NCBI GenBank assembly: GCA_001772335.1
Contig: METM01000029.1
Location: 8,401 to 72,400 of the forward strand
Source of the DNA: a candidate division WOR-1 bacterium RIFCSPHIGHO2_01_FULL_53_15
Lineage (GTDB): Bacteria; Margulisbacteria; WOR-1; O2-12-FULL-45-9; XYB2-FULL-48-7
Length of the DNA: 64,000 nt
Direction of reading: 5' to 3'
The notes beneath the pieces were generated by a model, which was not told the DNA's origin, searched no databases, and saw only the letters and a list, made by a program, of their open reading frames with translations. A program made the translations under genes and the position numbers. Below are positions 3,821 to 49,311 of this stretch, piece after piece (position 1 is the stretch's first letter; each line of letters starts with the position of its first letter).

Positions 3821-4187
3821 AAACCGACGCCACGGCATAATCGCGGGAATGAGATAAGCTGACGTGCGCCTTTTTGCTCAATTTGCCTCTGACTGTCAGC
3901 CGTGGCTTACCGCTTTTTTCGTTGACGACTTCGATTTCCTGCCAGCTGATGCCGTTCTGTTTGCGCCCGAAGCCGGTGATGCCCGTCCCGATCGCTTTTG
4001 AGTAGGCCTCTTTGGCGGCGAACCTGACGGCAAGCTCGGGGAACTTGAGCGCCCGGCGGCTGCGGCAGTATTTTAGTTCTCGGGGGGTAAAAACCTTATT
4101 GAGGAAATTATCGCCGTATTTTTTGACCGCGTCCTTCATCCTCTTGATCTCAATGATATCGATCCCAATCCCCTTGATCATGTTCAA
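3807..4187 (-). CDS. acpS: holo-[acyl-carrier-protein] synthase
   Basis: 126 aa. GIGIDIIEIKRM start, FAAKEAYSKA motif and typical AcpS size. Confidence 0.85.
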   Translation of the reverse strand: MNMIKGIGIDIIEIKRMKDAVKKYGDNFLNKVFTPRELKYCRSRRALKFPELAVRFAAKEAYSKAIGTGITGFGRKQNGISWQEIEVVNEKSGKPRLTVRGKLSKKAHVSLSHSRDYAVASVYVEN

Positions 4188-5098
4188 TAGACGGGCGTTA
4201 TCCAGTCGGCATATTTGGGGTCGTCGCCGCGCGCGGCTTTAAAATAGATCGTTTGCAACTTCTTCGTGATCAGACCGACTTTTCCATCTTTTATCAATTT
4301 GTCGTCAACCGAGGCAATCGGCGAGATCTGCGCGCCGGTGCCGCAGAAAAAGAGCTCGTCGGCGCCGTAAAGCTCGTTCTGCTTGATCTGCCGTTCGATC
4401 GTTTTGAGACCCAGCTCATTGGCGGCCAGTTCCATGACGCAGACGCGGGTGATCCCCGGCAGGATCGTCTCCGAAAGCGGCGGTGTGATCAGCTTACCGT
4501 CCTTGACCATGAAGAGATTTTCGCCCGAGCCCTCGGCGACGGTTTTCTCGTGTGAGAGGAGGATCGCTTCGTCGAAACCCTTTTCCAGCGCTTCGGCCTT
4601 GGCCAGCGATGAATTAATGTAAGTACCGGTGATCTTGGCCCCCTGCGGCACCGACTGGGCGGAGATCCGCCACCAGTTCGAGACGCAGACGCGGATCCCT
4701 TTCGTGATGTCAAGATAAGCGCCGAACGGCGATATGAACATGCAGAAGTCATCTTCGATCCCGATGAGGCCCAGCCCGATCTTTTCCTGCGATTTGTAAT
4801 AGATCGGCCGAATATAAATATCTTCTTTGTAGCCGTTCTTTTTGGCCAGCTCAACTGTGGCAGCGCAGAGCTCATCAACGGAATATTTCATTTCGGACTT
4901 GAGGCCGAGGTTGGTCGACCGGGCCAGCCGCTCATAATGCTCCTTGAGCTTGAGGATAAAGAGCTGGTTCTTTTCGGCGTTCCAGTAGCCGCGGATCCCC
5001 TCAAACACGCCGGTGCCATAGTTAAAAGCGTGCGTCATGATCCCGATCTTGGCTTCGCTAAACGGGACTATTTTGCCTTTAAAAAACGTGTATTTCAT
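4184..5098 (-). CDS. ilvE: branched-chain amino acid aminotransferase (fold type IV PLP enzyme)
   Basis: 304 aa. VFEGIRGY, YIRP and GTGAQISP-type class IV aminotransferase motifs. Confidence 0.85.
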   Translation of the reverse strand: MKYTFFKGKIVPFSEAKIGIMTHAFNYGTGVFEGIRGYWNAEKNQLFILKLKEHYERLARSTNLGLKSEMKYSVDELCAATVELAKKNGYKEDIYIRPIYYKSQEKIGLGLIGIEDDFCMFISPFGAYLDITKGIRVCVSNWWRISAQSVPQGAKITGTYINSSLAKAEALEKGFDEAILLSHEKTVAEGSGENLFMVKDGKLITPPLSETILPGITRVCVMELAANELGLKTIERQIKQNELYGADELFFCGTGAQISPIASVDDKLIKDGKVGLITKKLQTIYFKAARGDDPKYADWITPVY

Positions 5099-5283
5099 AT
5101 TTGTGTAATATCTAAATCTTTACAAATCTTTTTTGCTAAAAGATCGGGAATCTCATTATGTCGAGGAATAGTTGATGTCTTGCGGCTTTGCGGATTAAAG
5201 TAAACCGTATGCCGAGCTCCTTCACGAAGAAAACGGCAATTATTATAAATTAAGTGCTTGATCAATTCTTTCCTTTTCATCAA
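5095..5283 (-). CDS. hicA: HicA-family mRNA interferase toxin
   Basis: 62 aa. KELIKHL...REGARHTVYFNP...STIPRHNEIPDLLAKKICKDLDI matches the HicA/YcfA pattern. The stop overlaps the ilvE ATG as ATGA. AT-rich relative to its flanks. Confidence 0.8.
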   Translation of the reverse strand: MMKRKELIKHLIYNNCRFLREGARHTVYFNPQSRKTSTIPRHNEIPDLLAKKICKDLDITQI

Positions 5284-5501
5284 GCATTGACTCCGATTTC
5301 TTCCTTTACCACCTGACGCCCAACGAGGTCCCTTTCCGCGAGCTCACGATTTGATTGCAAAACAAGCTCAATTGCTTCTTTTAAATTATCTCTGGCTTCG
5401 TCTAACGTTTTCCCCTGGGTATTAGCGCCGGGAAGTTCTTCTACATAACCAATGAACCAATCTTCAGTTTTTTCAAAAACCGCCGTAAAAGTATTTACCA
5501 C
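5280..5501 (-). CDS. hicB: HicB-family antitoxin (UPF0150-type, no appended DNA-binding domain)
   Basis: 73 aa. FTAVFEKTEDWFIGYVEELPGANTQGKTLDEARDNLKEAIELVL is a typical HicB N-domain. There is a 4-nt overlap with hicA. Confidence 0.8.
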   Translation of the reverse strand: MVNTFTAVFEKTEDWFIGYVEELPGANTQGKTLDEARDNLKEAIELVLQSNRELAERDLVGRQVVKEEIGVNA

Positions 5502-5612
5502 CTTTGCACCTCCTTTGACGCTATTCTACCACAAAAATGTTTTCGAGAATAGCTGAAATTATTGCCGGAAACTGCCGATTACCGATTAATGTATGGAGGA
5601 CATAAGGCGCGA

Positions 5613-5642
5613 GGAAACCGCGACGCTCAGTCGCAGGTTTCC
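5613..5642. repeat. GGAAACCGCGAC / GTCGC(A)GGTTTCC hairpin element, copy 1
   Basis: ggaaaccgcgac-gctca-gtcgcaggtttcc: 12-bp stem with one bulge and a 5-nt loop. The same arms recur at 8685-8738. Confidence 0.6.
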
Positions 5643-5789
5643 GAGCTTATGTTCAAATATAACGGAATTTGAATCAAAGGAGGAAAAGATATCAAAGATA
5701 TCTCTTTTAACCAATTTTTAAGCACACGCGGTTGCGCACACCCCAGATTCCGAGCGATCGGACCTGATCGAAGGGTTGGCCGTATCTCA

Positions 5790-7046
5790 TTGATTGATAA
5801 TAAACCCGTTGTTGTTTTTAATAACAACCCTTCGCCCGCGGAAACCGCATTAGCTGCTGTAACAGCAAAAGAATTGGATTTTCTTTCCAAAGTCATTTTT
5901 GCGACCGATCGTAATTCTCAAGTCATTGCCTCGAGAGCCACTAAACACACATATTCTTTTCCGCACTCTTATTTGGAATTTGTTCCTCTTGTTCAGAAAA
6001 TATTGGCAGGGGAAGTGCCTCCGGCAATGTATATTGATGCGCATCCGGGGAATAGATGTGATTTTTGCTGTATCGAATGTTTTGACGATCCAATATTAAA
6101 GGGAAACAAAAGTTTTTTTCCATTTCCGCTTTTCTTGTCCCTCATTGAAGAAATAGCTACGGATTCAAGATCTCATGGCGTTGAGCATGTTCATCTTGAT
6201 CTTTCCGGCAGAGGAAATCCGATAATATATAAAGGAATAAAACCCTCAATTGTCAAGGCCGCGGAACTCGGGATGCACACCACATTCACGTCTACGGGAA
6301 GCGGGCTGGATAATGTTACGATAGATTTGCTAGGCAAACATGCTTTTCAGGTAAAATTAAGCATAAATGGCCTTAATGACAATAGTTATCTGCAAATCCA
6401 CAAGCCAAAAAACTCGTTTTCACTTGATAAAGCAAAAAGGAACCTTGTTGCTTTATTGGAGGCAAGGGTCCAACACGGAAGAGAAAGAGAACTACTTATC
6501 GGCATCCAGTCTTTTATCCACCCTGGCAACGCCGGATCAATTTTTCCATTTGCCGAAATGGTCAGGGAAATGGAAGTTGACTATATATCTTTTCGACAGA
6601 TTATTCAGAGGTCAGGTTTGCCAATAGACATACCTCCCGGAGTATATGACGAAGTAGATTCAGCGAGAACACTAGAAACAAGTCGATTTAAAGTCTTATC
6701 CTCATCCTCCAGGATGAAAATGTTTCCTGTTGTTGATCCGGAACCTGCGACCGGATTTTGCTTTATGAGTCAGGCGCGACCAAATATTGAGCCGGACGGA
6801 GGAGTATATCCTTGCGCAACAAAATCAGATTCAAGCAACATAGATTGGTTGTTTGGCCGTTACAACAAACCAGGAGATTATAAGAAAATTTGGTACGAAG
6901 AGGCCGCTAATATTAGAAGAAAAGCTCCTGCTTCGTGCCCAACTTGCTATTTCTGGGAAATAAATGCTCTGGCAGGATGGATTGGCCGGGTGCTTACCAG
7001 TGACCCCGCCGCCCGCTTCTTCCAATTGATTGAAACGGCATCATAA
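5790..7046 (+). CDS. radical SAM protein with C-terminal SPASM/twitch-like Cys motifs; substrate unknown
   Basis: CDFCCIEC gives CxxxCxxC (HPGNRCDFCCIECF). SGRGNP is a GGE-like motif. The C-terminus has CFMSQARPNIEPDGGVYPC (C-x13-G-x4-C) and CPTC. It is an AT-rich plus-strand singleton. The start is uncertain: TTG 5790 has a weak SD, and ATG 6027 would leave only 8 residues before the cluster. Confidence 0.7.
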   Translation: MIDNKPVVVFNNNPSPAETALAAVTAKELDFLSKVIFATDRNSQVIASRATKHTYSFPHSYLEFVPLVQKILAGEVPPAMYIDAHPGNRCDFCCIECFDDPILKGNKSFFPFPLFLSLIEEIATDSRSHGVEHVHLDLSGRGNPIIYKGIKPSIVKAAELGMHTTFTSTGSGLDNVTIDLLGKHAFQVKLSINGLNDNSYLQIHKPKNSFSLDKAKRNLVALLEARVQHGRERELLIGIQSFIHPGNAGSIFPFAEMVREMEVDYISFRQIIQRSGLPIDIPPGVYDEVDSARTLETSRFKVLSSSSRMKMFPVVDPEPATGFCFMSQARPNIEPDGGVYPCATKSDSSNIDWLFGRYNKPGDYKKIWYEEAANIRRKAPASCPTCYFWEINALAGWIGRVLTSDPAARFFQLIETAS

Positions 7047-7114
7047 GACAAATGGAGCATATGAGAATAAATATAACATAATTTGGATCGAAAAAGTTTC
7101 AGTGAAAATCTTTT

Positions 7115-8680
7115 TTACATCGATTCCGGAGCCGTAATTCCCAACAATTCTAACACATTGCGCAGAGTGATTCGAGAGGCGTCGACGAGCGTGAGGCGGG
7201 CGGGATTGCCTAGCACGCGGCACTTTTCGTAGAAGTGATGAAAAACGATCGCGAGTTCCTTGCCGTATTCTGTGATTCGGTGGGGATGTCGCAAAACCGC
7301 CGCCTCTTCCACTGACCGCGGCCACGCAAGGAGTCTCATCATCAGCTCTCTCTCCGCCGGTTCAGTTAGAGAGGATAAATCTTCTTGACCCTTGGTACTT
7401 GACCCTTGCCCCTCGCTCTCGGCCTTACGCAAGATGCTGCAGATCCTCGCATGCCCGTACTGGAGGTAATAGACCGGGTTGTCCATCGACTTCTTCTTGG
7501 CCAGCTCAAGGTCGAAATCCAGGTGTGAGTTGACGTCGGTGGCCGAGAAAAAGAAGCGCGTCGCGTCGGAGCCGATCTCGTCGATCACTTCCGCGAGCGA
7601 GACCATTTCACCCGTTCGCTTGCTCATGCGGATAGGCTCGTTGCCGCGGTAAAGGGTGACGAGCTGGCCGATGATTATTTCCAACCTATCGGCCGGCAGC
7701 CCCATCGCCTCGACTGCCGCTTTCAATCTCTTCACATAACCGTGATGGTCGGTCCCCCAAATATTAATGAGCCGCTCATAGCCGCGCGAGAATTTATCGA
7801 GATGATAAGCGAGATCGGCGGCGAAATATGTTGAATTGCCGTCGGCGCGGACGAGGACGCGGTTCTTGTCATCACCCATCTCCTGCGATTTAAACCAGAT
7901 CGCGCCTGCCTCGATGATCGTCTTGTGATTCTTTTCAAGGCGGGAGACCGCTTCCTTTACCTCGCCCTTGGCGTGGAGTTCGCTCTCATTAAAGAAACGA
8001 TCGAAAAGGACGCCGAGTTTGGCGAGAGTCGCTTTCTGCTCGGAAAGGATGTATTCAATGATATCCTCTTTGCTGTCGCCTTTAACTTCCTTGATATACG
8101 CGCCGCCGTAACCGTTTGCCGGGGTCGGTTTCCTCGCCCTGGCCGCCTGGACCGATTCCCAGAGCTTCTCGACCTGGTTGCCGATATTATTGACGTAGAA
8201 CTCGGTTTCGACTTTAAAACCGGCGGCCTTTAACAAGCGGGCAATCACGTCGCCGATCACCGCCCAACGGCCGTGCCCGACATGCAGCGGCCCAGTCGGA
8301 TTAGCCGAAACGTATTCGAGCAGAATTCTTTGACCCTTGCCACTTGACCCATGCCCCCAGCGCTGATCTTGCCTGATTATTTCCGGAATTGACTTTTGGG
8401 TCAGCTCATCTTTGATGAAGAAATTGATGAAGCCGGGCTTGACGATCTCGATTTTGCTGATAACTTCTTCGGCCCCGCCCATTTTGAGCTTCTCGGCGAT
8501 CTCTGCCGCCAGTTCCATGGGGTTGCGGGAAAGTTTCTTAGCGCCGGCAATGGCCAGATTGGTCGCAAAATCGCCGAATTCCTTGCGGGGAGATGGAGTT
8601 ATTTTGTAATCAAGCTGTATCTGGATACCGGCGGCTGACAGCGCTTTCTCGAGAAGCGATTCAATTGTTGACTGAAGCAT
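7115..8680 (-). CDS. argS: arginine--tRNA ligase
   Basis: 521 aa. SANPTGPLHVGHGR (HIGH region), MSKRTG (KMSK-like), C-terminal anticodon-binding domain ending YYLQYGHARICSILRKA. Confidence 0.95.
   Translation of the reverse strand: MLQSTIESLLEKALSAAGIQIQLDYKITPSPRKEFGDFATNLAIAGAKKLSRNPMELAAEIAEKLKMGGAEEVISKIEIVKPGFINFFIKDELTQKSIPEIIRQDQRWGHGSSGKGQRILLEYVSANPTGPLHVGHGRWAVIGDVIARLLKAAGFKVETEFYVNNIGNQVEKLWESVQAARARKPTPANGYGGAYIKEVKGDSKEDIIEYILSEQKATLAKLGVLFDRFFNESELHAKGEVKEAVSRLEKNHKTIIEAGAIWFKSQEMGDDKNRVLVRADGNSTYFAADLAYHLDKFSRGYERLINIWGTDHHGYVKRLKAAVEAMGLPADRLEIIIGQLVTLYRGNEPIRMSKRTGEMVSLAEVIDEIGSDATRFFFSATDVNSHLDFDLELAKKKSMDNPVYYLQYGHARICSILRKAESEGQGSSTKGQEDLSSLTEPAERELMMRLLAWPRSVEEAAVLRHPHRITEYGKELAIVFHHFYEKCRVLGNPARLTLVDASRITLRNVLELLGITAPESM
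7385..7412. repeat. heptamer cassette, TTGACCC family (copy in argS, 3' part)
   Basis: TTGACCC TTGGTAC TTGACCC TTGCCCC on the plus strand. It encodes GQGSSTKGQ in argS. Confidence 0.8.
8330..8357. repeat. heptamer cassette, TTGACCC family (copy in argS, 5' part)
   Basis: TTGACCC TTGCCAC TTGACCC ATGCCCC. It encodes GHGSSGKGQ just before the HIGH region. Confidence 0.8.
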
Positions 8681-8684
8681 ATCA

Positions 8685-8738
8685 AGAAACCGCGACGACT
8701 CGACTGAGCTCGTCGAAGTCGTTCAGTCGCAGGTTTCC
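8685..8738. repeat. GAAACCGCGAC / GTCGCAGGTTTC hairpin element, copy 2 (extended inner stem)
   Basis: Same outer arms as 5613-5642 with an extra inner stem GACTCGAC/GTCGAAGTC. It fills the ytxH-like/argS intercistronic gap: it abuts the upstream stop and ends 5 nt from the argS start. Confidence 0.6.
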
Positions 8739-8920
8739 TACCCTTCTTTTTTGCCGAATTCTTGCTTTAACTCGTCGAATTTGGCTTTGCCTTTATCCAG
8801 AGCGTCTTTAAGTTTTTCTCTCGTTTCTCCGCCTTTTGATGGCGCAAAAAGCAAACCGCCGATGAAACCGAGCAGACCGCCGAACGTCAGAACCTTCAAG
8901 AAACTCTTGATCTTACCCAC
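8738..8920 (-). CDS. YtxH-domain small membrane-anchored protein
   Basis: 60 aa. GGLLGFIGGLLFAPSKGGETREKLKD is the YtxH signature. GTG start with AGGGGGAAG SD. Confidence 0.7.
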   Translation of the reverse strand: MGKIKSFLKVLTFGGLLGFIGGLLFAPSKGGETREKLKDALDKGKAKFDELKQEFGKKEG

Positions 8921-12607: not shown

Positions 12608-13476
12608 GAGATCGATTGTACCATGATCTTTAACTCGGGCTCAAGCGTGACTTTAAACTTCCTTTTTACGGCGCCGCGCATCCGCGTCATCAGTTTAATG
12701 ACGTCGCGCGCCTTCGCCTCGCCGAGATTTAAGATAAAATTGGCGTGCTTGACCGAGACCTGCGCGTCGCCAACGCGCGCTCCCTTAAAGCCCGCCTCTT
12801 CAAGCAGTTTGCCGGCAAATTTCCCCTTGGGATTCTTGAAGATACTGCCGGCATTGGGGCTGCCGAGCGGCTGGTTGAGTTTACGTTTCTCAAGAAAACC
12901 GAGGATCTTCTTTCTGATGCGCCCGGGCGAGCCCTTGCGCAGTTTCAAGACGACCTCCGCCGCGATCAACTTCCCTTTTTGCAGGACGCTCCGGCGGTAG
13001 CCGAAACGCAAACCGGGCTTTTTTATTTCCTTCAGATCGCCGTTCTTATCAAGCGCCCTGACGCGGTCGACGTACCGGCCGATCTCACCGTCCCACGCCC
13101 CGGCGTTCATGGCAGCGGCGCCCCCCACCGTCCCGGGAATACCCGCCAAGAACTCGAGGCCGGCCAGGCCGCGGCGGGCCGCGATATTTAGAAGAACAGG
13201 CAAGAGTGTCCCCGCGCCAGCGTGGATAACCCGGCCGCGGACCGTCACCTTATTGAGGCCGCCGCCCAGTTTAATAACTAGCCCGCGAAAGCCGTTATCC
13301 AGCGCAAGGAGATTTGTCCCCATTCCTAAAATAGCGACCGGCAGGCGATTCTCGCGCGCGAATTTCAGCGCTTCCCTCAACTCATCGATATTCGTCGGCG
13401 CGCAGAAATACTCGGCTGGGCCGCCGATGCGGAAGGAAGTGTGTTTCTTTAATGGTTCGTTGCGGACCATTTTCAT
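12604..13476 (-). CDS. murB: UDP-N-acetylenolpyruvoylglucosamine reductase
   Basis: 290 aa. HTSFRIGGPA, GMGTNLL and GSIFKNP motifs. Confidence 0.9.
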   Translation of the reverse strand: MKMVRNEPLKKHTSFRIGGPAEYFCAPTNIDELREALKFARENRLPVAILGMGTNLLALDNGFRGLVIKLGGGLNKVTVRGRVIHAGAGTLLPVLLNIAARRGLAGLEFLAGIPGTVGGAAAMNAGAWDGEIGRYVDRVRALDKNGDLKEIKKPGLRFGYRRSVLQKGKLIAAEVVLKLRKGSPGRIRKKILGFLEKRKLNQPLGSPNAGSIFKNPKGKFAGKLLEEAGFKGARVGDAQVSVKHANFILNLGEAKARDVIKLMTRMRGAVKRKFKVTLEPELKIMVQSIS

Positions 13477-20873: not shown

Positions 20874-20908
20874 AACGTTCTACTTTCTACTGTCTACTTT
20901 CTAATATA
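20874..20908. repeat. intergenic tandem heptamers (TACTTTC type)
   Basis: AACGTTC TACTTTC TACTGTC TACTTTC TAATATA, between tRNA-Ala and secG. Confidence 0.75.
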
Positions 20909-20912
20909 AGAT

Positions 20913-20985
20913 TGGAGCCGAGCGGGATCGAACCGCTGACCTCCTCGTTGCGAACGAGGCGTTCTCCCAGCTGAACTACGGCCCC
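20913..20985 (-). tRNA. tRNA-Ala (anticodon CGC)
   Basis: Minus strand reads GGGGCCGTAGTTCAGCTGGGAGAACGCCTCGTTCGCAACGAGGAGGTCAGCGGTTCGATCCCGCTCGGCTCCA. 73-nt cloverleaf with G3:U70 alanine identity pair, anticodon loop TTCGCAA and GGTTCGATCC T-arm. CCA is not encoded. Confidence 0.95.
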
Positions 20986-24504: not shown

Positions 24505-25743
24505 TTAAAAGATTATCTTGTGGCGCCGCATCGAGATGCTCTGCAGGATGCCGACGCTCGCGAGGCCGACAAAGAGCGACGTGCCGCCGAAACTCATGAA
24601 AGGCAGAGGTATCCCCACGACCGGCAGGATGCCGATCACCATCCCCATATTGGCAAAGACGTGAAAACCCAGCATGACGGCGATACCCGAGGCCAGGAGT
24701 TTGCCGATCGTGTCCCTTGACTCTGAAGCGATGACCAGCGCCCGCCAGATCAGGAGGGCAAAGAGCGCCAGGACGGCCGCGGCGCCGAGAAAACCGAATT
24801 CTTCGGCCATGACCGAAAAAATAAAATCGGAGTGCTGTTCGGGGATGAACTGAAGCTGGGTCTGTGTCCCGTGCATAAAACCCTTCCCAAAAAAACCGCC
24901 GCCGCCCACGGCGATTATGCTCTGCAAGCTGTGATAACCGGCGCCGTACGGATCGGCCGCCGGATTAAGGAACGCCAGGATGCGCTGTCGCTGATACGCC
25001 TTCAGCATCCCCCACAGGTACGGCAGGGCGATACCCACGCCGACATTGATCCCCAGAATAAGGAGCCAATCGCGCGCTCTCGCCCGAGTGAGAAAGAGTA
25101 CCAGCGCTACGGCCAGCAAATAGACCAGCCAGAGATGGACGACCGGCCGCAGGAGGATCGAGATGATCGGCGTCACCAGAAAGATGAGAAGCCGCGGCGA
25201 GGCCTCGGCAGCCGTCAGCAGGCCGAGGAGGATCGCGAAAAAGACGAGCGCGGTGCCAAGGTCCGGCTGTTTAAAGATCAAAAGGAATGGGATGCCGACC
25301 AGCGCTAAGAGATAACCGGCCTGCCAGAAGCTCTGGATCTTTTTCCGTTCGCTGAAAAAAGCGGCCAGGGCGACGATCAGCGTCAGCTTGGAGAGCTCGG
25401 ACGGCTGGAAAGAAACAGGGCCGAGCTGCAGCCAGCGCTGGGCGCCGGCGGCGCTTGAACCGGTAAAGAGGATCGCGACCAAAAGAACGATCGTGAAGCC
25501 GTAGAGAAAGAGCGCGGCTTTCTTTAAATGTTTATAATCAAAATAGGTGAAGAGGCAGAGCCCGGTCAGGGCGAGAAGAAGAGACATGAACTGCCGTTTG
25601 ACGAAGATAAGCGGATCAAGATCGGCCTTGATCTGCAGCTGGTAGGTCGCGCTGAAGATCGCGGTAAAACCGATAACGATCAGGGCGCCGGCCGAGAACC
25701 ACAGCCACGGGTCGGAGAGCTTGAGCATCCGGAAATTGATCAT
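24505..25743 (-). CDS. rodA: SEDS-family peptidoglycan polymerase RodA
   Basis: 412-aa polytopic ORF. QPSELSK, PEQHSDFIFS and SFGGTS motifs. It is the second SEDS paralog and lies outside the dcw cluster. Confidence 0.8.
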   Translation of the reverse strand: MINFRMLKLSDPWLWFSAGALIVIGFTAIFSATYQLQIKADLDPLIFVKRQFMSLLLALTGLCLFTYFDYKHLKKAALFLYGFTIVLLVAILFTGSSAAGAQRWLQLGPVSFQPSELSKLTLIVALAAFFSERKKIQSFWQAGYLLALVGIPFLLIFKQPDLGTALVFFAILLGLLTAAEASPRLLIFLVTPIISILLRPVVHLWLVYLLAVALVLFLTRARARDWLLILGINVGVGIALPYLWGMLKAYQRQRILAFLNPAADPYGAGYHSLQSIIAVGGGGFFGKGFMHGTQTQLQFIPEQHSDFIFSVMAEEFGFLGAAAVLALFALLIWRALVIASESRDTIGKLLASGIAVMLGFHVFANMGMVIGILPVVGIPLPFMSFGGTSLFVGLASVGILQSISMRRHKIIF

Positions 25744-27155
25744 TTAGCTAATTCGACCGCGGCGATGAGCGCCCGCGCTTTGTTGACCGATTCCTGATAC
25801 TCCTTCTCCGGGCTGGAATCGGCCACCACGCCGCCCCCCGCCTGGACAAAAGCCCGGTTCCCCTTGACGAGAATGGTTCTGATGGCGATGCCCGAATCAA
25901 GATCGCCGGAAAAACCAAAATAGCCGACACTGCCGGCGTAGAGGCCGCGCTTGACGTTCTCTAACTCATCGATGATCTCCATGGCTCTGACTTTCGGCGC
26001 GCCGGAAACCGTGCCGGCCGGAAAAGTCGCCTTGAGGAGCTCGACCGCGTCCAGGCCGCGGCGCAGCTTACCCGTCACGTTGCTGACGATGTGCATGACG
26101 TGGGAATATTTTTCGATCACCATCTCTTCGGTCACTTTGACACTGCCGTAGTCGCAGACGCGGCCGAGGTCGTTGCGGCCGAGGTCGACGAGCATCACAT
26201 GCTCCGCCCGCTCCTTCTTGGAAGCGAGAAGATTTGCCATCAGCCGGCGGTCCTCTTCCTCATCCTTACCCCTTTTCCTTGTCCCCGCGATCGGCCGCAG
26301 TGTCGCCCGCCCCTTTTCCAGGCGGACCATCACTTCGGGCGAGGAGCCGATGATCTTGACATCGCCTAACCGCAGGAAATACATGTAAGGCGAAGGGTTG
26401 ATGATGCGCAAGATCCGGTAGACGCCGAGCGGATCGGCCTTGAGCTTCATTTCGAACCTTTGCGACGGGACGACCTGGATGATGTCGCCGGCATTGATGT
26501 AGGCCTTGGCTTTTCTCACCATCGCTTCGAATTCAGCTTTTGTCAGGTTTGACCTGGCGTGGAAAGCGCCTCTGGCGGGCGCTGGGACCTCAAGTTCTTC
26601 TCTCTTCAAGTTGATGTTCTTGTCGAGTTTCTTTTCCAGCGCCGCGATCCTGGCGCTGGCCTGTTCGTACGCCCTTTTCGGACTGCCGGAGACATGCGCG
26701 TTGGCAATGATGAGGATCTTGTGTTTGATGTGATCGAAGGCAAGGACCGTGTCGGCCAGCATAAATTGCATCATGGGGAGCTTGAGATCGTCGGGATTCG
26801 TATCGGGTATTTTTTCGATCAGCCGGACGGCGTCGTAGCCGACGTAGCCGACCAGGCCGCCGGAAAATCTCGGCAGACCGGCCACTTCGACCGGCCGGTA
26901 TTTTTTCAGGATATTTCTGATCTCTTCAAAGGTTTTGGGCCTTGCCACCTGACCCTTGCCGCATGACCCTAAAAATGAATAGCGCGCGATCTTTTCGCCC
27001 CCCTCGACCGACTCGAGGAGGAACGAATATTCCGACTCGATTTTCTTGAAAGCCGAGACCGGCGTCTCCATATCGGCCACGATCTCTTTGTAGACCGGGA
27101 TCAGATTCCCTTTTTTCGATAGTTTAGTGAATTCTTTTTCACTTGGATAAAACAT
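25740..27155 (-). CDS. trpE: anthranilate synthase component I family (TrpE/PabB-type chorismate-utilising enzyme)
   Basis: LIPVYKEIVADMETPVSAF, FLLESVEGGEKIARYSF, GAPKVRAMEII and GGGVVADS motifs. Start placed at MFYPSE. No trpG/D/C/B/A nearby. Confidence 0.8.
   Translation of the reverse strand: MFYPSEKEFTKLSKKGNLIPVYKEIVADMETPVSAFKKIESEYSFLLESVEGGEKIARYSFLGSCGKGQVARPKTFEEIRNILKKYRPVEVAGLPRFSGGLVGYVGYDAVRLIEKIPDTNPDDLKLPMMQFMLADTVLAFDHIKHKILIIANAHVSGSPKRAYEQASARIAALEKKLDKNINLKREELEVPAPARGAFHARSNLTKAEFEAMVRKAKAYINAGDIIQVVPSQRFEMKLKADPLGVYRILRIINPSPYMYFLRLGDVKIIGSSPEVMVRLEKGRATLRPIAGTRKRGKDEEEDRRLMANLLASKKERAEHVMLVDLGRNDLGRVCDYGSVKVTEEMVIEKYSHVMHIVSNVTGKLRRGLDAVELLKATFPAGTVSGAPKVRAMEIIDELENVKRGLYAGSVGYFGFSGDLDSGIAIRTILVKGNRAFVQAGGGVVADSSPEKEYQESVNKARALIAAVELAK
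26942..26969. repeat. heptamer cassette, TTGACCC family (copy in trpE)
   Basis: TTGCCAC CTGACCC TTGCCGC ATGACCC. It encodes GSCGKGQVA. Confidence 0.75.
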
Positions 27156-27966
27156 AAAACTCCGCGATCTTTCGCAATGCATCGGCTTTCCCGCCGAAAC
27201 TTTTCAACGCTGAAATCGCTTTTATCTTTTCTTGCTCGGCTAAAGTTCTTGACTTTTCCAAGCCGATCAAACGAGGAAAACCCTTGCCGATATCGGCCTT
27301 GACCGGCTTGCCGATCTTTTCGGCTGTCGCCGTCACGTCAAGTATATCATCGGCGATCTGAAAGGCAAGACCGAGATGCTCCGCATATTTAGTCAGGGCT
27401 TTGATCTGCGCGGCTGACGCGCCGCAGATCAACGCGGAACCGCGCACGCAGGCCTTAAACAAAGCCGCCGTCTTCCAGCTGTGTATCTTTTTCAGATCGG
27501 CAAGAGAAACCTTCCTCTTTTTCGATTCAATATCGACCGCCTGCCCCTCGACCACCGTAAGCAGCGCCCGAGCCAATTCGCGCGCTGCCGCCGGCTGATC
27601 AGCGATGATCTCGAAAGCCAGCGTATTGAGCGCGTCGCCGGCCAGGATAGCGGCCGCTTCGCCGAAAACCTTGTGACACGCTGGCTTGCCGCGGCGGAAA
27701 TCTGAGTTGTCCATCGCCGGCAGATCGTCATGAATAAGGGTAAAAGTGTGGATCAGCTCGACAGCGCAGGCAAAGGGGAGAACTTTTTTCTCCGGACGGC
27801 CAAGGACTTTAGCCGTCGCCAGGCAAAGTACGGGGCGAAAGCGCTTACCCCCGGCAAAGACAGAATACCTCATCGCCTTTGCCAATTTACCTTTTCTTGG
27901 CAGATAGCGATCGAGTTCGCGGTCTATTCTTTTTTTACCGCCTGACAGTAATGCCTCGATCCCCAA
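27139..27966 (-). CDS. ispA: polyprenyl diphosphate synthase (FPP/GGPP synthase type)
   Basis: First DDxxD region [19 protein letters not shown] and second FQIADDILD. Confidence 0.85.
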
Positions 27967-28708
27967 GATAATCCTTTATCTCCTTTATAGTCATCTCTTT
28001 ATAATGTAGGATCGAAGCGAGCAAAGCCGCGTCCGCCTTGCCTTTAACGAACGCCTCATAGACATGCTCGTTCTTCCCCGCCCCGCCGGAGGCAATGACC
28101 GGGACTTCGACCGCGTCTGCAATCGCCCGCGTCAACTCCAATTCATAGCCGGCCTTTGTCCCGTCCCGGTCCATGCTCGTCAGGAGTATCTCTCCCGCCC
28201 CGAGCTTAACCGCTTTCTTCGCCCACTCGACCGCATCAAGTCCCGTCGGCGTCCGCCCGCCGTGCGTGTAAACTTCCCAAGTCGTCCCTCGTCCTTCGTC
28301 TTTCGTCCTTCGTTTCGCGTCTATCGCTAAAACCACACACTGGCTCCCAAACTTTTCGGCCCCCTTCTCGATCAGTGATGGGTCGCGCACCGCCGCCGTA
28401 TTGACGGAGATCTTGTCGGCTCCGGCGGAGAGCAATTCTCTCATCGTTTCGACATCATAGATCCCGCCGCCGACGGTGAAAGGGATAAAGATCGTCTCAG
28501 CGACTTTCTTGACGACCTCGAGCATGATATATCTTTTATCGGAAGAAGCGGTAATATCGAGGAACACAAGTTCATCGGCTCCCTCTTTATCATAGACGGC
28601 CGCTAACTCGACCGGGTCGCCCGCGTCCTTGAGATCGACAAATTTCGTCCCCTTGACGACGCGCCCTTCGGTCACGTCAAGGCAGGGAATTATTCTTTTG
28701 GCTAACAT
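27935..28708 (-). CDS. hisF: imidazole glycerol phosphate synthase cyclase subunit HisF-family protein
   Basis: [12 protein letters not shown]...[13 protein letters not shown]...SVNTAAV...ASGGAG. Start at MLAKRI (28708). No other his genes are adjacent. Confidence 0.8.
28281..28322. repeat. tandem heptamers (TTCGTCC type) inside hisF
   Basis: GTCGTCC CTCGTCC TTCGTCT TTCGTCC TTCGTTT CGCGTCT. It encodes [12 protein letters not shown]. Confidence 0.75.
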
Positions 28709-31614: not shown

Positions 31615-33953
31615 AAGATCGAGTCGATCTTTTCGACGTATTTGTCGATCAGCTTTTGCGCCTGTTTTTCGCTGTCCGCTTCGGCGTAGAGATGGATGAT
31701 GGGACGCTGCGGGTCTGGCAGGATGAGCGCCCAGTCGTTGCCATGAAAGACCTTGACCCCGTCGGTCAGATCGACCTCCTCGTCGGCGACCGAATCGACG
31801 ATCGAGCGCAGGACTTTCCCTTTCTGCTCTGAAGCGCAGGAGACCTCTTTGCTGGCCATATAGATGCGGGGGACCTGCGCCGCCACCTCCGAGAGTTTGA
31901 CGTTCTCTTTCGCCAGCATCTCGAGCAGTTTGAGCGAGGCAAACATCGCGTCGAAGGCGCACTGGAACTGCGGGAAGATAAAGCCGCCGGTCGACTCGCC
32001 CAGGAACTGCATGCGCCCCTTGTAGCAATTCTCCATCATGTCGCGCACGCTTGTCTTCGTCCTGATGACCTTTGCCCCGCACTGTTTGGCCGCCTCATCG
32101 ATCACGCGGCTGGCCTTGACCGGCACGCCGATCTCTTTGGCCTTCTGCGAGCGGCAGAAGAGGATCGTCATGATGGCCAGCTCAAGGTCGCCCTGGATCA
32201 GGCGCCCCTTTTCGTCGCAGAGGAATATTTTCTCCGCGCCGGTATCGAGCATGATGCCAAGGTCAGCGTCAAGCGACTTGACGATCGAGGAAAGCTGGCA
32301 GTGGGCTTTTTCGAACATGACGCGCGTCTTGGTGATCTTGGTCTCGTCGATATGGGCGTTGAGCGCGATGACCTCGATGCCGAGCTCGCCCAGGATGGCG
32401 GGAAATATTTGCGAAGCCGAGCTGTAGGCGTAATCGACGACTACTTTAAAGTTGCGGGCGGTGATCACTTCTTTGTCGAGTCCGCCGAGAACCCCTTCCT
32501 TGTACGACTCGGCCACGCGGTGGTAAGGGAAATTGAGCTCGCCGACCTCATCGACGCCGCCGCGCTTAAAATCCTCGCCGAAGAAAAGACGCTCGATCTT
32601 TTTCTCGTGGCCCGACGGCAGGTCCATGCCGTTCTCGTCGAAGAACTTGATGTCGATGACTTGCTGGTCGTAGGGTGATTTGCGCACGTGGAAGCCGCCG
32701 CGGCTCTTGAGCGCTTTCAGCTCGTAGCGATTGACCGGGATAGGCACCATCTCGAGGTCGGAAACATCGACGCCGGCCGAAAGGACGCCGGAGAGGAGCG
32801 CCCGGTAGATCATGCGCGACGACTTGTGCGAGTCGCGCGAAGTCGAGATGCGGCTCCCTTTGCCGAGGAACGCGCCGTAGGCGGCGCCCAGCGTCGCGGC
32901 AAATTCGGGCGTCATCTCGACATTGCAAAGGCCGGTCACGCCGTAGGGGCCGAAAATATTCCTGGCCCAGCGCTCGCGCCAGACCATCGAGCGCGAGACG
33001 ACCGCCCCCGCTTCGATCACGCGGTGCGGCCAGATCTTGACGTATGGCTTGATCTTGGCGTCGGCGCCGATATTGCACTCTTCGCCGATGACGACCCCCT
33101 CTTCGCAGAGCACGCGGTCGCCGATCGCGGTGTCGCGGGCCACGATCGTCTTCTCCAGCCGGGCTTCTACCCCGATCGAAACATTGTCCCAGACGACGCA
33201 CTGGTCAAGCTTGGCGCTTTTCGCGATCGCGCACTTTTTACCGATCGAATTGCCGCCGGCGATCTCCACATTGACATTGATATATTCATTTAAACTGCCG
33301 ATATCTTTCCAGCGCCCCTGCGCGACAAAGCCATAGAGCGGCTTGCCTTCCTGCAGTAAACGGGGGAAGAGGTCCTGGCTGAAGTCGACGGAACGGCCGG
33401 TCGGGATATATTCGAAAACGGCCGGGTCAAGGATATAGATGCCGCAGTTGATCGTGTCGGAAAAGACCTCGCTCCAGGATGGCTTCTCAAGGAAATGTTT
33501 GATCCGCCCGTCCTTGCCGGTGATGACGATGCCGTATTGCAGGGGATTGGCGACGCGTGTCAGCACCAGTGTCGCCATCGCTTGCTTGTCGTTGTGGAAC
33601 TTGATGATCTCCGCGAGATCAAAATCGGTGATCAGGTCGGCGCTGATGACGAGGAACGGCTCAGCGAAATTCTGGGCCGCGAAGCGGACGGCGCCGGCCG
33701 TGCCGTAGTCCTCCTTGGCCTCGACGTATGAAATATTGACGCCGAATTTTTTCCCGTCGCCGAAATAGTCCTTGATCGTCTCCGGCTGGTGGTAAAGCAG
33801 GGCGGTGATATCCTTGATCTTGTGCTTGCGCAATAGATAGACGACATATTCCATCAGGGGCTGGTTGGCCACTGGGATCATCGGCTTCGGGATATTGACT
33901 GTGAGCGGATGGAGGCGGGTGCCGAGGCCGCCGGCCAGGACTATGGCTTTCAT
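31611..33953 (-). CDS. fusion protein: sugar-1-phosphate nucleotidyltransferase + left-handed beta-helix + divergent phosphohexomutase-like module
   Basis: 780 aa. N-terminus MKAIVLAGGLGTRLHPLT...PKPMIPV, hexapeptide region at about aa 250-330, then a PGM/PMM-like region with sugar loop GESTGG but altered Ser, metal and phosphate loops. Confidence 0.75.
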   Translation of the reverse strand: MKAIVLAGGLGTRLHPLTVNIPKPMIPVANQPLMEYVVYLLRKHKIKDITALLYHQPETIKDYFGDGKKFGVNISYVEAKEDYGTAGAVRFAAQNFAEPFLVISADLITDFDLAEIIKFHNDKQAMATLVLTRVANPLQYGIVITGKDGRIKHFLEKPSWSEVFSDTINCGIYILDPAVFEYIPTGRSVDFSQDLFPRLLQEGKPLYGFVAQGRWKDIGSLNEYINVNVEIAGGNSIGKKCAIAKSAKLDQCVVWDNVSIGVEARLEKTIVARDTAIGDRVLCEEGVVIGEECNIGADAKIKPYVKIWPHRVIEAGAVVSRSMVWRERWARNIFGPYGVTGLCNVEMTPEFAATLGAAYGAFLGKGSRISTSRDSHKSSRMIYRALLSGVLSAGVDVSDLEMVPIPVNRYELKALKSRGGFHVRKSPYDQQVIDIKFFDENGMDLPSGHEKKIERLFFGEDFKRGGVDEVGELNFPYHRVAESYKEGVLGGLDKEVITARNFKVVVDYAYSSASQIFPAILGELGIEVIALNAHIDETKITKTRVMFEKAHCQLSSIVKSLDADLGIMLDTGAEKIFLCDEKGRLIQGDLELAIMTILFCRSQKAKEIGVPVKASRVIDEAAKQCGAKVIRTKTSVRDMMENCYKGRMQFLGESTGGFIFPQFQCAFDAMFASLKLLEMLAKENVKLSEVAAQVPRIYMASKEVSCASEQKGKVLRSIVDSVADEEVDLTDGVKVFHGNDWALILPDPQRPIIHLYAEADSEKQAQKLIDKYVEKIDSIL

Positions 33954-34046
33954 TTACTCAACCCCTCCGGAACCTGCGAATAAATCTCGCGCCAGGTTAA
34001 ATCCTCTTATAAATACCGTTTTCATTCCTTAACCACATTAAGAAAA

Positions 34047-34991
34047 CTATTTAATAGTTTTCAAGAGCCTAATAAATCCGGCAGTATTAACAAAATAGTT
34101 GTTCTTATTTTGACGAAGATACCTGTAAATATCCCTCTTCGCTTTTGACATCTTATTGTCGCACGAAGCATTTATAAGCTCGTTAAACATTATCCCATCT
34201 AAAAATGCCACGTAAGAGATATTCTTGTCGGTATATTTCAAGAAGTCAACAAGCTCAACAATTTGACTATATTGTCCTCCGCCGCTACCCTTTTTATGCT
34301 TATGCTCAATAATCCAGGCGTTGGATGCTTTTTGTATATAAAAATCTGGCATTTTGCCTTGTTTGGATTTACTCCATCTAAATTTAACATTATGTTTACT
34401 GCAAATATCCCTAAAATATTTATTATCACCTCGATCAGGCAATAAATAGAATGTGTCTTTATCGAAATCATTATCGTTATTAATTCTCTTGAAACCCGCG
34501 CTTTCAACTAGCGCAGCAATCTTGCTTACGCCGGTTTTGCCAGCCCTTTTATGCGAATAGTTATCGGCTAATACTTGCAATACAATATTGGAATATCCAT
34601 GCGATAGATACATTTGATGTCTGTCATTTATATATTTATTGATTAATTCGCGCAATAAGGGCATTCTATCTTCTTCTCTCTCGCAACTCAAAGATGAATA
34701 CGGCATATCCCAAACCATTAAATACTGGGCGAAAGCTGTATAATTCATATGGCTATTGTTAAAAAGGATGGAATCAATTTCGCCCACAAGGTCGTCTTCT
34801 TGTTTTTTTGACAGTTTTCCCCGCATTGTTTGATATGAGGTAATCAAACCGATAAGACGCTCATTATTCTTAATTGGCTTATTTGTCTTGTGTGCGTCTT
34901 TTGTGATAATAATTTTCTCTTTTTTGTTAGCGTCATCAAATATGTGCTCGGTATTTTTCAGTGAATATTCGAACAATTCGATATTGTCCAT
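34047..34991 (-). CDS. putative type II restriction endonuclease (PD-(D/E)xK)
   Basis: 314 aa, AT-rich. MPDFYIQKASNAWIIEHK gives PD...x12...ExK. AGGAGGG SD lies 7 nt before the ATG. It overlaps the 3' end of the methyltransferase gene by 34 nt. Confidence 0.55.
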   Translation of the reverse strand: MDNIELFEYSLKNTEHIFDDANKKEKIIITKDAHKTNKPIKNNERLIGLITSYQTMRGKLSKKQEDDLVGEIDSILFNNSHMNYTAFAQYLMVWDMPYSSLSCEREEDRMPLLRELINKYINDRHQMYLSHGYSNIVLQVLADNYSHKRAGKTGVSKIAALVESAGFKRINNDNDFDKDTFYLLPDRGDNKYFRDICSKHNVKFRWSKSKQGKMPDFYIQKASNAWIIEHKHKKGSGGGQYSQIVELVDFLKYTDKNISYVAFLDGIMFNELINASCDNKMSKAKRDIYRYLRQNKNNYFVNTAGFIRLLKTIK

Positions 34992-35983
34992 AAAGTATCC
35001 CTCCTGTACACCTTCTCGTAAGCAATTTCAAGCATTGCTCGCGCTGTCTCATAATCTAAGCGCCTTCTTCTCCTGCCATTTTTCATGTTTCCCTTAAACG
35101 GAGACAACAATACATCTTTCGTTCTATCCCTAAAACCAAACAGCACTTTGTTGCACTCCTCGAGGAACAAATCTAATTCATTGCGATTTAATTTATTAAT
35201 ATTGATTAAAGTAATGAGCCGGGAACTTTGTTTAATGTTATTCAAATCATAATCTAATTCATCTTTTCTCATAAATTTAATCATGGAGTTGGGGTCCGTA
35301 GTATCAACTGCCCTTAAAGCGATATTCCCGGCCGAGTCATTAAACGCCATTTCAATATTTTTCGAAGGCTTGATCCTCATTTCCTCAAAGTACCTCAAAG
35401 TATTCAAGTATTCGTCGTTTTTATAAACTTTAATAGCTTTAGGATCCTTAACTCGGCCGTCGAAACAAAGCACACAAACCGGAGTTTCAGTGTCATCAAA
35501 GCAATTATCTTCAATAATCGTAATTGAGTTTAATTTATGTTTCTGCTTAAAATTACTATTAATAAACGTCTCCGGGACAATGGCAACCACGTATTTTTGC
35601 GTCTGAATCATTCTTTCCAGCGCGATCAAATAAATATCATCATATTCGGAATTAGAAAAATATCTTTCGACGCTCTGATAAACCCCCTTCCTCTTGGCGC
35701 TGTAATTAGTCAAGTATGGGGGATTGGTGATTATTATTGCATTATCAATGGTTGGGATATGCAGTAAGCTGTCGTTCTTTGCCCAATCGAGTTTTTCATC
35801 AATATCCAGCCCAATCGTTTCCTGAAAGCCAATACTGCGGGCGGCTTCCAATAAATGACCGTCACCGGCAAAAGGATCATATGCGACCGCCGCTTTCGTG
35901 CTAATAATAAATCTTTTGATATGCTCCTTCAGCCAAATATCTCTCTTGGTATTGAATTGACCGAAAATTATCTTTTTTGCCAT
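34958..35983 (-). CDS. N6-adenine DNA methyltransferase (motif I before motif IV)
   Basis: YDPFAGDGHLL (FxGxG-like SAM motif) and IIITNPPYL (NPPY catalytic motif); 341 aa; AT-rich. Confidence 0.8.
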   Translation of the reverse strand: MAKKIIFGQFNTKRDIWLKEHIKRFIISTKAAVAYDPFAGDGHLLEAARSIGFQETIGLDIDEKLDWAKNDSLLHIPTIDNAIIITNPPYLTNYSAKRKGVYQSVERYFSNSEYDDIYLIALERMIQTQKYVVAIVPETFINSNFKQKHKLNSITIIEDNCFDDTETPVCVLCFDGRVKDPKAIKVYKNDEYLNTLRYFEEMRIKPSKNIEMAFNDSAGNIALRAVDTTDPNSMIKFMRKDELDYDLNNIKQSSRLITLININKLNRNELDLFLEECNKVLFGFRDRTKDVLLSPFKGNMKNGRRRRRLDYETARAMLEIAYEKVYRRDTLWTISNCSNIH

Positions 35984-36008
35984 ACTATTTCATCTCTGTA
36001 TATTTGAT

Positions 36009-48523: not shown

Positions 48524-48808
48524 ATGATCGAGAAAAAACACGTCGACGGCAAGAACAAGGGCGAAATATTAATATACGCCCTCTCCACCTGCGGCTGGTG
48601 CAGGAAGGCCAAAAATATCCTTAAACAGTTAGGGATCGCTTACGACTATATCGATGTCGACCTCTTGAGTGACGAGAAATCGACAAAGATCGAGAATGAA
48701 GAGGTTAAAAAATGGAACCCGGCCTGCACTTATCCAACGATTGTCATCAACAATCAACGGTCGATCAATAAATTCAACGAAGACAAGATCAGGGAACTTG
48801 GCCAATGA
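48524..48808 (+). CDS. glutaredoxin-like small thiol-disulfide protein
   Basis: 94 aa. [18 protein letters not shown] (CxxC in a glutaredoxin-fold context). 4-nt overlap with the downstream FTRc gene. Confidence 0.75.
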
Positions 48809-49311
48809 GCTTTGAGCCGACCCGGGCGCAGGTCAATGAACTCTATACCCGGTTAAAGAACGAAGCCGAGGGCTCGGGCTACCATCTCCACCCCGATGTG
48901 GAATTCACAAAATGGCTCGTGCGAGGCATTCTGATCAACGAAGCCCGCTACGGCTACTGGAACTGCCCCTGCCGTCGAGCCACCAATAATAAGCAGGCCG
49001 ACCTCGATATCATCTGCCCCTGCGACTACCGCGATCCTGATTTGAACGATTACGATGCTTGCTACTGCGCCCTGTATGTCTCGACAAAGATCTTAAAAGG
49101 AGAAAAAGAAGCTATGCCAATACCGGAAAGAAGGCCTGCGCCGGAACTAAGAGCGCAGAACGCGGAACACAGAGCACAGGAGGGAATTGGTAATTTAAAC
49201 TATCCTGTCTACCGCTGCCGCGTCTGCGGCTATCTCTGCGCCCGGAACGAACCGCCCGAGGTCTGCCCCATCTGCAAGGCCAAAAAAGAGCGGTTCAAAA
49301 GATTTATCTAA
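48805..49311 (+). CDS. ferredoxin:thioredoxin reductase catalytic-subunit domain fused to a C-terminal rubredoxin-like domain
   Basis: CPC-x16-CPC-x8-CYC arrangement (WNCPCRR...IICPCDY...DACYCALY) typical of FTRc. C-terminal YRCRVCGY...VCPICKAKK (Cx2C...Cx2C). Confidence 0.8.
49147..49181. repeat. tandem heptamers (CGCAGAA type) forming the FTRc-rubredoxin linker
   Basis: CTAAGAG CGCAGAA CGCGGAA CACAGAG CACAGGA. It encodes [13 protein letters not shown]. Confidence 0.65.

Follow-up and report, generated by a model that had tools for sequence, protein, structure and literature searches.

Short tandem repeats with a seven-nucleotide unit have been reported from several groups of bacteria. The short tandemly repeated repetitive (STRR) heptamers of heterocystous cyanobacteria are said to go back to Mazel in 1990, and heptanucleotide long simple sequence repeats (SSRs) to Mrazek in 2007; work of that year reportedly ranked heptanucleotide repeats as the most over-represented of the long bacterial microsatellites, most of them intergenic. 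In Nostoc punctiforme, small dispersed repeats (SDRs) of 21-27 nt were reported by Elhai et al. in 2008 to insert within heptamer repeats. Here we analyse heptamer arrays in a 64,000-nt stretch of DNA (hereafter the window) from the candidate division WOR-1 bacterium RIFCSPHIGHO2_01_FULL_53_15 (GenBank assembly GCA_001772335.1, contig METM01000029.1, positions 8,401 to 72,400), where such arrays lie within genes for conserved enzymes. The organism belongs to the Margulisbacteria, the sister phylum of Cyanobacteria. Among described repeats, the arrays are closely matched by the 49 elements of four tandem heptanucleotides in Geobacter metallireducens, named Gmet_H4## and matchable by BLAST, for which a regulatory RNA role was proposed (Aklujkar et al. 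2009, PMC2700814). More widely, heptanucleotide SSRs are over-represented in many bacteria and polymerase slippage that favours a 7-nt step has been proposed as their origin, according to the summaries given in PMC4679880 and PMC4692102.

The arrays of the window share with the Geobacter elements four 7-nt units (28 nt) of the G3N4 type, multiple copies, both genic and intergenic positions, and occasionally more than one array per gene. They differ in phylum and in unit (GGGACCG/GGACCGG there, GGGTCAA here), their central unit is interrupted, and persistence at a site with turnover of the unit is seen here, whereas the Geobacter paper made no orthologue comparison. With STRR sequences and long SSRs they have in common tandem heptamers and an over-representation of period 7, and arrays of TTGACCC are present in Nostoc, Calothrix and Tolypothrix, as the initial annotation had anticipated in likening the cassettes to cyanobacterial STRR. 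Yet STRR and long SSRs are described as lying mainly between genes and as frequently long, and the strict STRR host is a heterocystous cyanobacterium, which this organism is not; here 12 of 13 arrays are coding, with about four imperfect units in essential genes. The TAACTGA repeats of marine Beggiatoaceae, cyanobacteria and Bacteroidetes (MacGregor 2015, PMC4679880) are likewise heptamer direct repeats, in 2-6 copies and patchy across phyla, but consist of one specific unit lying upstream of start codons and untranslatable in the forward orientation. With moderate confidence, we interpret the cassettes of the window as heptanucleotide microsatellites of the STRR or period-7 long SSR type in coding DNA, made and homogenised by misalignment in a 7-nt register and then selected.

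The interpretation starts from four arrays:

7385 to 7412, minus strand: cassette with sense units GGGGCAA GGGTCAA GTACCAA GGGTCAA; ArgS residues 423-432, EGQGSSTKGQ, located in the linker that follows the anticodon-binding domain's first helix.
8330 to 8357, minus strand: cassette with sense units GGGGCAT GGGTCAA GTGGCAA GGGTCAA; ArgS residues 108-117, WGHGSSGKGQ, in the loop directly before the strand leading to the HIGH motif.
52448 to 52475, minus strand: cassette with sense units GGGACAT GGGTCAA GCAGCAA GGGTCAA; GcvPB residues 137-146.
26942 to 26969, minus strand: related array of period 14 with sense units GGGTCAT GCGGCAA GGGTCAG GTGGCAA; TrpE residues 72-81, GSCGKGQVAR.

Pfam identifies the hosts as genuine minus-strand genes (ArgS, 7115-8680; TrpE, 25740-27182; GcvPB, 51472-52884). 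ArgS holds two cassettes and GcvPB a cassette and a second array, while the TrpE array falls in a shortened, variable N-terminal segment. On the plus strand the cassettes read TTGACCC TTGGTAC TTGACCC TTGCCCC (7385-7412), TTGACCC TTGCCAC TTGACCC ATGCCCC (8330-8357) and TTGACCC TTGCTGC TTGACCC ATGTCCC (52448-52475), and the trpE array reads TTGCCAC CTGACCC TTGCCGC ATGACCC. The initial annotation had counted all four as copies of one 28-nt cassette. Its pattern, with up to three mismatches tolerated, matches exactly three sites in the window (7385, 8330 and 52448), which are 24-25/28 identical in pairwise comparison, and has no match in 100 dinucleotide-preserving shuffles; the trpE array lies more than three mismatches away and is a relative offset by one unit, which Tandem Repeats Finder (TRF) reports with period 14 and 88% matches. 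By the definition of a Gmet_H4##-type family (four tandem heptamers, multiple copies, nucleotide similarity), the window holds three copies and one shifted relative.

The peptides and frames first assigned to the ArgS, TrpE and GcvPB copies are correct, and the GcvPB cassette is read one nucleotide out of phase with those of ArgS. This reading in two frames had been taken to mean that DNA or RNA, not peptide, is the conserved unit. A DNA repeat of 7-nt period is indeed what recurs, but the argument from two frames is weaker, because 7 and 3 have no common factor and a perfect heptamer array therefore encodes an identical cyclic heptapeptide in all three frames (G-S-R-V-K-G-Q for GGGTCAA). Circular permutation of GSRVKGQ, with changes due to the variant third unit, yields the peptides of ArgS (G[H/Q]GSS[G/T]KGQ) and of GcvPB (MGQAARVK). 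Reading in two frames is thus built into period 7 and is not independent evidence of a function at the DNA level. Orientation is constrained for some units: antisense TTGACCC and TTTGAAG contain TGA and CGTAATG contains TAA, so that these three families are compatible with an open reading frame (ORF) in one orientation only. An orientation fixed by stops was rejected as a general rule, since the consensus unit of 8 of 26 in-ORF arrays would create a stop in a perfect array, which variant units evade.

Period 7 stands out from all others in the window. A count of segments matching at 17 or more of 21 positions for a given lag gave seven at lag 7, one at lag 12 and none at any other lag from 4 to 13, with none in shuffles; lag 14, the second harmonic of period 7, gave four. 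TRF lists ten period-7 rows. Margulisbacteria DNA totalling 216 kb holds 28 period-7 arrays, about 24-26 of them within long ORFs, and almost none of other periods. The defining features of STRR and long SSRs, a tandem 7-nt unit beyond chance and an over-representation of period 7, are accordingly present in the window. A Markov test found no 7- to 10-mer standing out in the window, which places the signal in tandem arrays rather than in a dispersed word, and the many unrelated unit sequences argue against one recognised sequence.

The cassettes coincide with loops. In AlphaFold models, ArgS 108-117 and 423-440 are coil, with pLDDT below 50 at 427-429, GcvPB 139-145 is a loop between a helix and a strand, and GcvPB 284-295, which carries the second array, is a beta hairpin. 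The possibility, raised at the outset, that the encoded residues are loop insertions was borne out as to the coil loops, but lineage-specific insertions they are not, as the ArgS and GcvPB loops lie within -3 to +3 residues of homologues. Against solved structures, ArgS site 1 (GHGSSGKGQR) shows no length difference from Pyrococcus GSSEIGKGKK, and the ArgS site 2 linker is 3 residues longer than in Campylobacter and 3 shorter than in Pyrococcus. The GcvPB cassette site (site A) is one residue shorter than Thermus EDRGEGRTRR and equal to Synechocystis, with no insertion relative to 1wyt_B or 4lgl_A, and GcvPB site B is one residue longer than in Thermus. Only the loop of a HisF array described below exceeds solved structures by as much as 6 residues. 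This length neutrality ruled out loop insertion for ArgS and GcvPB. The cassettes overlie ancestral glycine-rich loops almost without net change in length; beneath them ArgRS has the motif GKG(K/Q) and the P-protein has (R/K)G(E/Q)G.R. The resemblance of Pyrococcus GKGKK to the window's GKGQR, and of Thermus RGEGR to the KGQG.R of relatives, would be expected if selection for Gly/Ser/Lys/Gln loops had produced similar peptides convergently, or if the likeness were accidental. To this explanation we give practically no credence: the absence of matches in shuffles, the nucleotide identity of the cassettes across frames and the period-7-specific enrichment effectively refute it.

Other DNA-level motifs are tolerated in coding DNA, in several frames and at poorly conserved protein positions, among them uptake sequences (USS/DUS) and Rickettsia palindromic elements. 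Uptake sequences are single motifs of 9-12 nt at about one per kb, whereas the window has several unit families and 3-4 cassette copies in 64 kb; a DNA uptake sequence was rejected for the multiple unrelated families and the low copy number. Rickettsia palindromic elements are palindromes of 100-150 nt and true insertions, and the cassettes are neither. In-frame mobile palindromic insertion of any such kind (RPE, REP or SDR-like) was also rejected: the cassettes have fold z-scores of only -0.7 to +1.1 and no net insertion, and the palindrome of an SDR-like insert described below for a relative is absent from the window.

Comparison with orthologues shows how the sites change. Among named homologues, those closest to ArgS and GcvPB (54-99% identity) belong to Candidatus Margulisbacteria, Margulisiibacteriota and Saganbacteria (the last equivalent to WOR-1), and no paper linking Margulisbacteria with heptamer repeats turned up in the literature searched. 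Across the phylum, the ArgS and GcvPB loops of orthologues retain heptamer arrays while the unit sequence turns over. At ArgS site 2, one orthologue (P0003, 76% identity) reads GGGACAA GGGGCAA GGGGCAA GGGGCAA, while another (P0002, 79% identity) has an unrelated unit over the same 28 nt, CTCGCGA CACGCGA CACGCGA CTCGCGA. At site 1, P0003 has five units (+7 nt, -1 nt) against four in the window, and P0002 has GGGGTAT-type units. In the window, as in P0003, one family thus occupies both ArgS sites, while the closer P0002 has other units at both. In a contig whose ArgS is 99% identical (L121), the cassettes are identical to those of the window, without variation in units. In other relatives, the ArgS linker or GcvPB site A carries arrays of AATCCCA, CTTCAAA, AAAATCA or TCAAAAG, and GGGNCAA arrays occupy the GcvPB cassette site in many orthologues.

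The same turnover is visible in the proteins. Linker peptides of about 80 ArgS and about 100 GcvPB orthologues show a clear excess of 7-residue periodicity, exemplified by SEIRNPKSEQG, SQIPNPKSQ, TEDQRPKTED, RDKGQGKRDK, KGQGSRVK, SADRFLLSADRFP and NDKFQMTNDKFP. Identity within a sequence at lag 7 is 0.34-0.36; for lags of 5, 6 or 8 it is 0.02-0.15, and when different sequences are compared it is 0.15-0.26; repeats within one orthologue are therefore more alike than matching positions elsewhere, which points to concerted evolution or repeated regeneration. GcvPB site A is 9-10 residues long in 56 orthologues, 16-17 in 25 and 23-24 in two, steps of 7 residues, equal to three heptamers, so that whole units vary between species. 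A GcvPB with 97% identity (P0121) differs at 13 residues, seven of them within the two arrays. The arrays are the parts of their genes that evolve fastest. We also observed that P0121 reads GDHYKLLSTNY at the array at 51987-52016 of the window, six changes in ten residues, the hairpin being hypervariable between near-identical strains. In the array of another relative (L247) an in-frame TGA has become GGA, and a relative's DprA gene (1036-2136) has an AATGTCA/AATGACA array near its 3' end.

Two further observations concern relatives. In one GcvPB gene (L249:10001-11497, P0146), the second and third units of a (TCAAAAG)4 array are separated, precisely at their junction, by 21 inserted nucleotides, CCTGCCTGCCGGCAGGCACGG. 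This insert contains the palindrome CCTGCCGGCAGG and encodes LPAGRHG; LPAGR or PACRQAG-like peptides interrupt arrays in ArgS P0016 and P0021 and in GcvPB P0183 and P0220. The insert resembles the very small palindromic mobile elements reported from Nostoc. The SDRs resemble what is seen here in being very small repeats from the same superphylum, and in that a 21-nt palindromic insert splits a heptamer array, but the window cassettes are direct repeats without a palindrome and are not insertions, and no palindrome of the L249 type or SDR-like palindromic element was found in the window. Inverted pairs of heptamer arrays occur in intergenic DNA (L248:13323-13360 with 13398-13436, for example GTAGCAAGG upstream of CCTTGCTAC), and also in L152, L204, L220 and L013, from relatives and other phyla; they are hairpin-capable, and their positions would suit terminators or regulatory stems.

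Both the misalignment mechanism and the lack of any function are what we infer from this pattern. The arrays would arise by strand misalignment in a 7-nt register during DNA synthesis, with two outcomes: true slippage, or transient misalignment and realignment, by which a neighbouring unit would be overwritten and length kept. Weakly 7-periodic, G-rich loop-coding DNA could in this way become more periodic, and the units would stay alike while their shared sequence drifts. Selection would then act as a filter. Arrays would persist only in loops and linkers that tolerate change; the cyclic heptapeptide would have to suit the local motif, as GSRVKGQ suits GKGQ and KGQG.R loops; length changes would be kept only in steps of three units (21 nt, 7 residues); and the surviving arrays would be those read without an in-frame stop. 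Interrupted arrays probably persist better, because interruptions damp frameshifting slippage.

The window as a whole holds at least 13 short heptamer arrays with various units, most of about four units; twelve are coding, all in ORFs that Pfam confirms as genes, and one is intergenic. At least nine period-7 arrays have other unit sequences, beyond the four sites already given:

51987 to 52016, minus strand: second GcvPB array, of unrelated unit; sense CATTACG CGTTACG CGTTACG CATTACG (plus-strand unit CGTAATG).
28282 to 28321, minus strand: HisF array of about five units, AGGACGA type (plus-strand unit TCGTCCT).
46607 to 46633, minus strand: ThyX array in the first Thy1 domain, GGTAAGG type (plus CTTACCC); encodes EVRGKGYEVR.
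45932 to 45949, minus strand: ThyX array in the second Thy1 domain at the homologous position, GGTAAGG type (plus CTTACCC); encodes KVRGKGY.
49696 to 49711, minus strand: RtcB array of 2.3 units, GGGGTAG (plus CTACCCC); encodes KGVGGS.
49149 to 49181, plus strand: degenerate heptamer array in ORF 48805-49311, lag-7 score 16/21.
51079 to 51108, minus strand: array in an LplA/LipB-like ligase, CTTCAAA type (plus TTTGAAG), with a degenerate extension over 51049-51112.
61008 to 61038, minus strand: DprA array, CTTCAAA type (plus TTTGAAG); encodes LNIQLQTSNFK.
20878 to 20903, no strand assigned: the sole intergenic array of the window, TTCTACT, 3.7 copies.

The second GcvPB array (TRF, 4.3 copies, 91% matches) has an orthologous array in relatives. 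By Pfam boundaries the array at 49149-49181 falls in the linker between an FeThRed_B domain and a rubredoxin-like domain, and that of DprA lies in the linker from the Rossmann domain to the winged-helix domain. ThyX (45601-47004) has two Thy1 domains with 24% protein identity to each other, and in both of its arrays an in-frame TAA is replaced by TAT. The intergenic array lies about 10 nt downstream of a tRNA gene (20913-20985, minus strand), the only tRNA found in the window. G+C content is about 0.475 in two 4-kb blocks (4001-8000 and 32001-36000) and 0.53-0.59 elsewhere in the window.

The initial annotation knew of no described heptamer cassettes dispersed through essential genes outside the cyanobacteria; this did not hold, given the Geobacter elements of 2009 (PMC2700814) and the GGGTCAA cassettes that occur in genes of other phyla. 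Our scans of genome and metagenome collections are samples of the matches listed, not totals, and the search pattern biases what turned up; coding status in other phyla rests on long stop-free spans and eight Pfam checks. Among the matches listed, TTGACCC arrays come from Nitrospirota, Geobacteraceae, Omnitrophota, Nostocales (Nostoc, Calothrix, Tolypothrix) and other groups, and those of Nitrospirota, Geobacter and Omnitrophota include arrays in housekeeping genes. Four units are the commonest size in the 240 public loci listed, with 45 four-unit arrays against 13 of three and 17 of five units among the genome loci; of the listed arrays in a stop-free span of at least 150 residues (GGGTCAA sense), 51/114 have four units. 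Pfam-checked hosts of GGGTCAA arrays include RtcB, HisF, IleRS, MurD, RibD, RlmN and a GH57 enzyme. In a relative with a 67%-identical RtcB, a GGGTCAA cassette encoding RVKGQGSR lies in the loop that carries the GGGGTAG array of the window, and an Omnitrophica HisF (L076:3-506) has a GGGTCAA cassette in the loop that carries the window's AGGACGA array; these coincidences suggest permissive loops common to several phyla. For RtcB, the GGGTCAA cassette in this loop was noted at L058:3156-4646. The variant TTGACCC TTGCTAC TTGACCC TTGACCC was seen in at least ten unrelated metagenome contigs (including L152, L158, L170, L207, L220 and L237), its left flank often ending in TCC, and may be a widely dispersed cassette variant.

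Several findings weigh against misalignment followed by selection. The three cassettes deviate from (TTGACCC)4 at the shared positions 11, 13 and 25 despite their different frames, a coincidence of probability about 5e-6 if decay is uniform and about 3e-3 on a restrictive null, and interruptions shared across frames are not predicted by independent slippage. The array stretches of ThyX are identical at 33/36 nt in homologous positions despite the 24% identity of the domains. Four units lead even outside long ORFs (27/131 listed arrays), so that frame selection alone is insufficient to explain this size, and the recurrence of TTGACCC across distant phyla implies some sequence preference. Finally, slippage by one unit would be a lethal frameshift in an essential gene, which makes length-neutral conversion or three-unit events a requirement of the mechanism.

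Some of these findings would sit more easily with copying, in which a patch of about 28 nt moves between genomic sites, by ectopic templated repair, microhomology-primed conversion or a very small mobile element, and overwrites an equal length of tolerant coding DNA. The interruption pattern common to three cassettes in different frames, the two nearly identical ThyX copies with their shared TAT stop fix, the length neutrality of replacement, the single family at both ArgS sites of the window and of P0003 but not of the closer P0002, and the 49 BLAST-matchable copies in G. metallireducens (PMC2700814) all accord with it, and the palindromic insert in the (TCAAAAG)4 array of a relative indicates that very small insertions do occur in arrays. 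The ThyX stretches suggest either conversion within the gene or parallel array formation. Yet flanks in common, target duplication and terminal repeats are all absent from the three cassettes; the GGGNCAA arrays at the GcvPB site of many orthologues are consistent with descent; many array families are single-copy in the window; and 28 nt is below the usual length for homologous recombination. Selection against slippage or against G-quadruplexes could also place the interruptions in the same unit, with a chance of about 1/16 for three arrays. We regard copying as possible but unlikely. In its stronger form, a templated process that is dedicated to the task, or at any rate specific, would propagate the four-heptamer families, acting as a "patch writer" or micro-conversion of 28 nt that overwrites tolerant coding DNA with a copy of an existing cassette; this strikes us as somewhat less likely still.

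A selected recognition site on DNA or mRNA is an explanation to which we attach little weight. Its ligand might be a global regulator or a nucleoid protein, or else a protein of the cold-shock type with one heptamer bound per monomer, and the site would be genic for want of intergenic space. All three cassettes can be read as two 11-nt boxes, CAAGGGTCAAG, with three variable bases between them; the Geobacter authors proposed a regulatory role (PMC2700814); CspB binds heptamer repeats, as cited in PMC4679880; and the lead of four units outside ORFs would also fit. Set against this, many unrelated units behave alike and turn over at fixed sites, the arrays evolve fastest within their genes, and the cassettes show no promoter-like site, significant RNA fold or Rfam family. 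The proposal of antisense starts at the -35-like TTGACC failed, as a scan of 7000-8800 gave two promoter-like sites against 1.2 expected, both away from the cassettes, and an antisense promoter there was rejected. An RNA element found no more favour: folding of the four cassette regions is no better than that of shuffled sequence (z between -0.7 and +1.1), and an Rfam search of the window returned the tRNA at 20913-20985 alone, with no family at the cassettes. The suggestion of a slippage-prone contingency sequence also appears unlikely, given essential genes, interrupted arrays and the identical cassettes of the 99%-identical contig; a phase-variable locus was rejected because the hosts are housekeeping enzymes, not surface or variable genes, and the arrays are not perfect.

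The four-unit preference would also follow from a G-quadruplex, functional or acting as a replication obstacle that drives repeat formation, since (GGGTCAA)4 offers four G3 tracts with 4-nt loops, the intramolecular minimum; the Geobacter GGGACCG and the Xanthomonas and Nostoc GGGNATC repeats fit as well. However, the third sense-strand unit of every window cassette is without a G3 tract, which leaves three tracts, and by the criterion of at least four runs of at least three G with loops of 1-7 nt the quadruplex was rejected for the window cassettes; the CTTCAAA, CATTACG, AGGACGA and AGTAGAA arrays have no G tracts. ArgS site 2 of P0003 does have four such runs. As an explanation of the arrays, a quadruplex seems to us very improbable. 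The GGGNATC/GGGGAYT repeats of Xanthomonas and Nostoc (Rehm et al. 2015, PMC4692102) are likewise G3-4N3-4 heptamers, and intergenic inverted pairs occur, but they are intergenic and quadruplex-forming, whereas the window cassettes have three G tracts and several arrays none.

The four-heptamer repeat within genes is thus a kind already known, but, as far as we found, the behaviour of such arrays in coding loops has not been described. Unlike intergenic arrays, those inside conserved enzymes can be placed in a fixed coordinate system by orthologue alignment, which shows arrays persisting at one loop across a phylum, units being homogenised and replaced, length changing in 21-nt steps and stops being repaired. 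The arrays in coding loops make the mutational mechanism testable by comparative genomics and reporter assays. As hypervariable patches of 7-residue periodicity in housekeeping proteins, they can lead alignments, phylogenies and strain typing astray in uncultured lineages. If true, templated writing of 28-nt patches would make the cassette the smallest DNA unit known to propagate itself within essential genes of bacteria, and would jointly explain the preference for four units in many phyla, the interruptions shared across frames and the length-neutral replacement.

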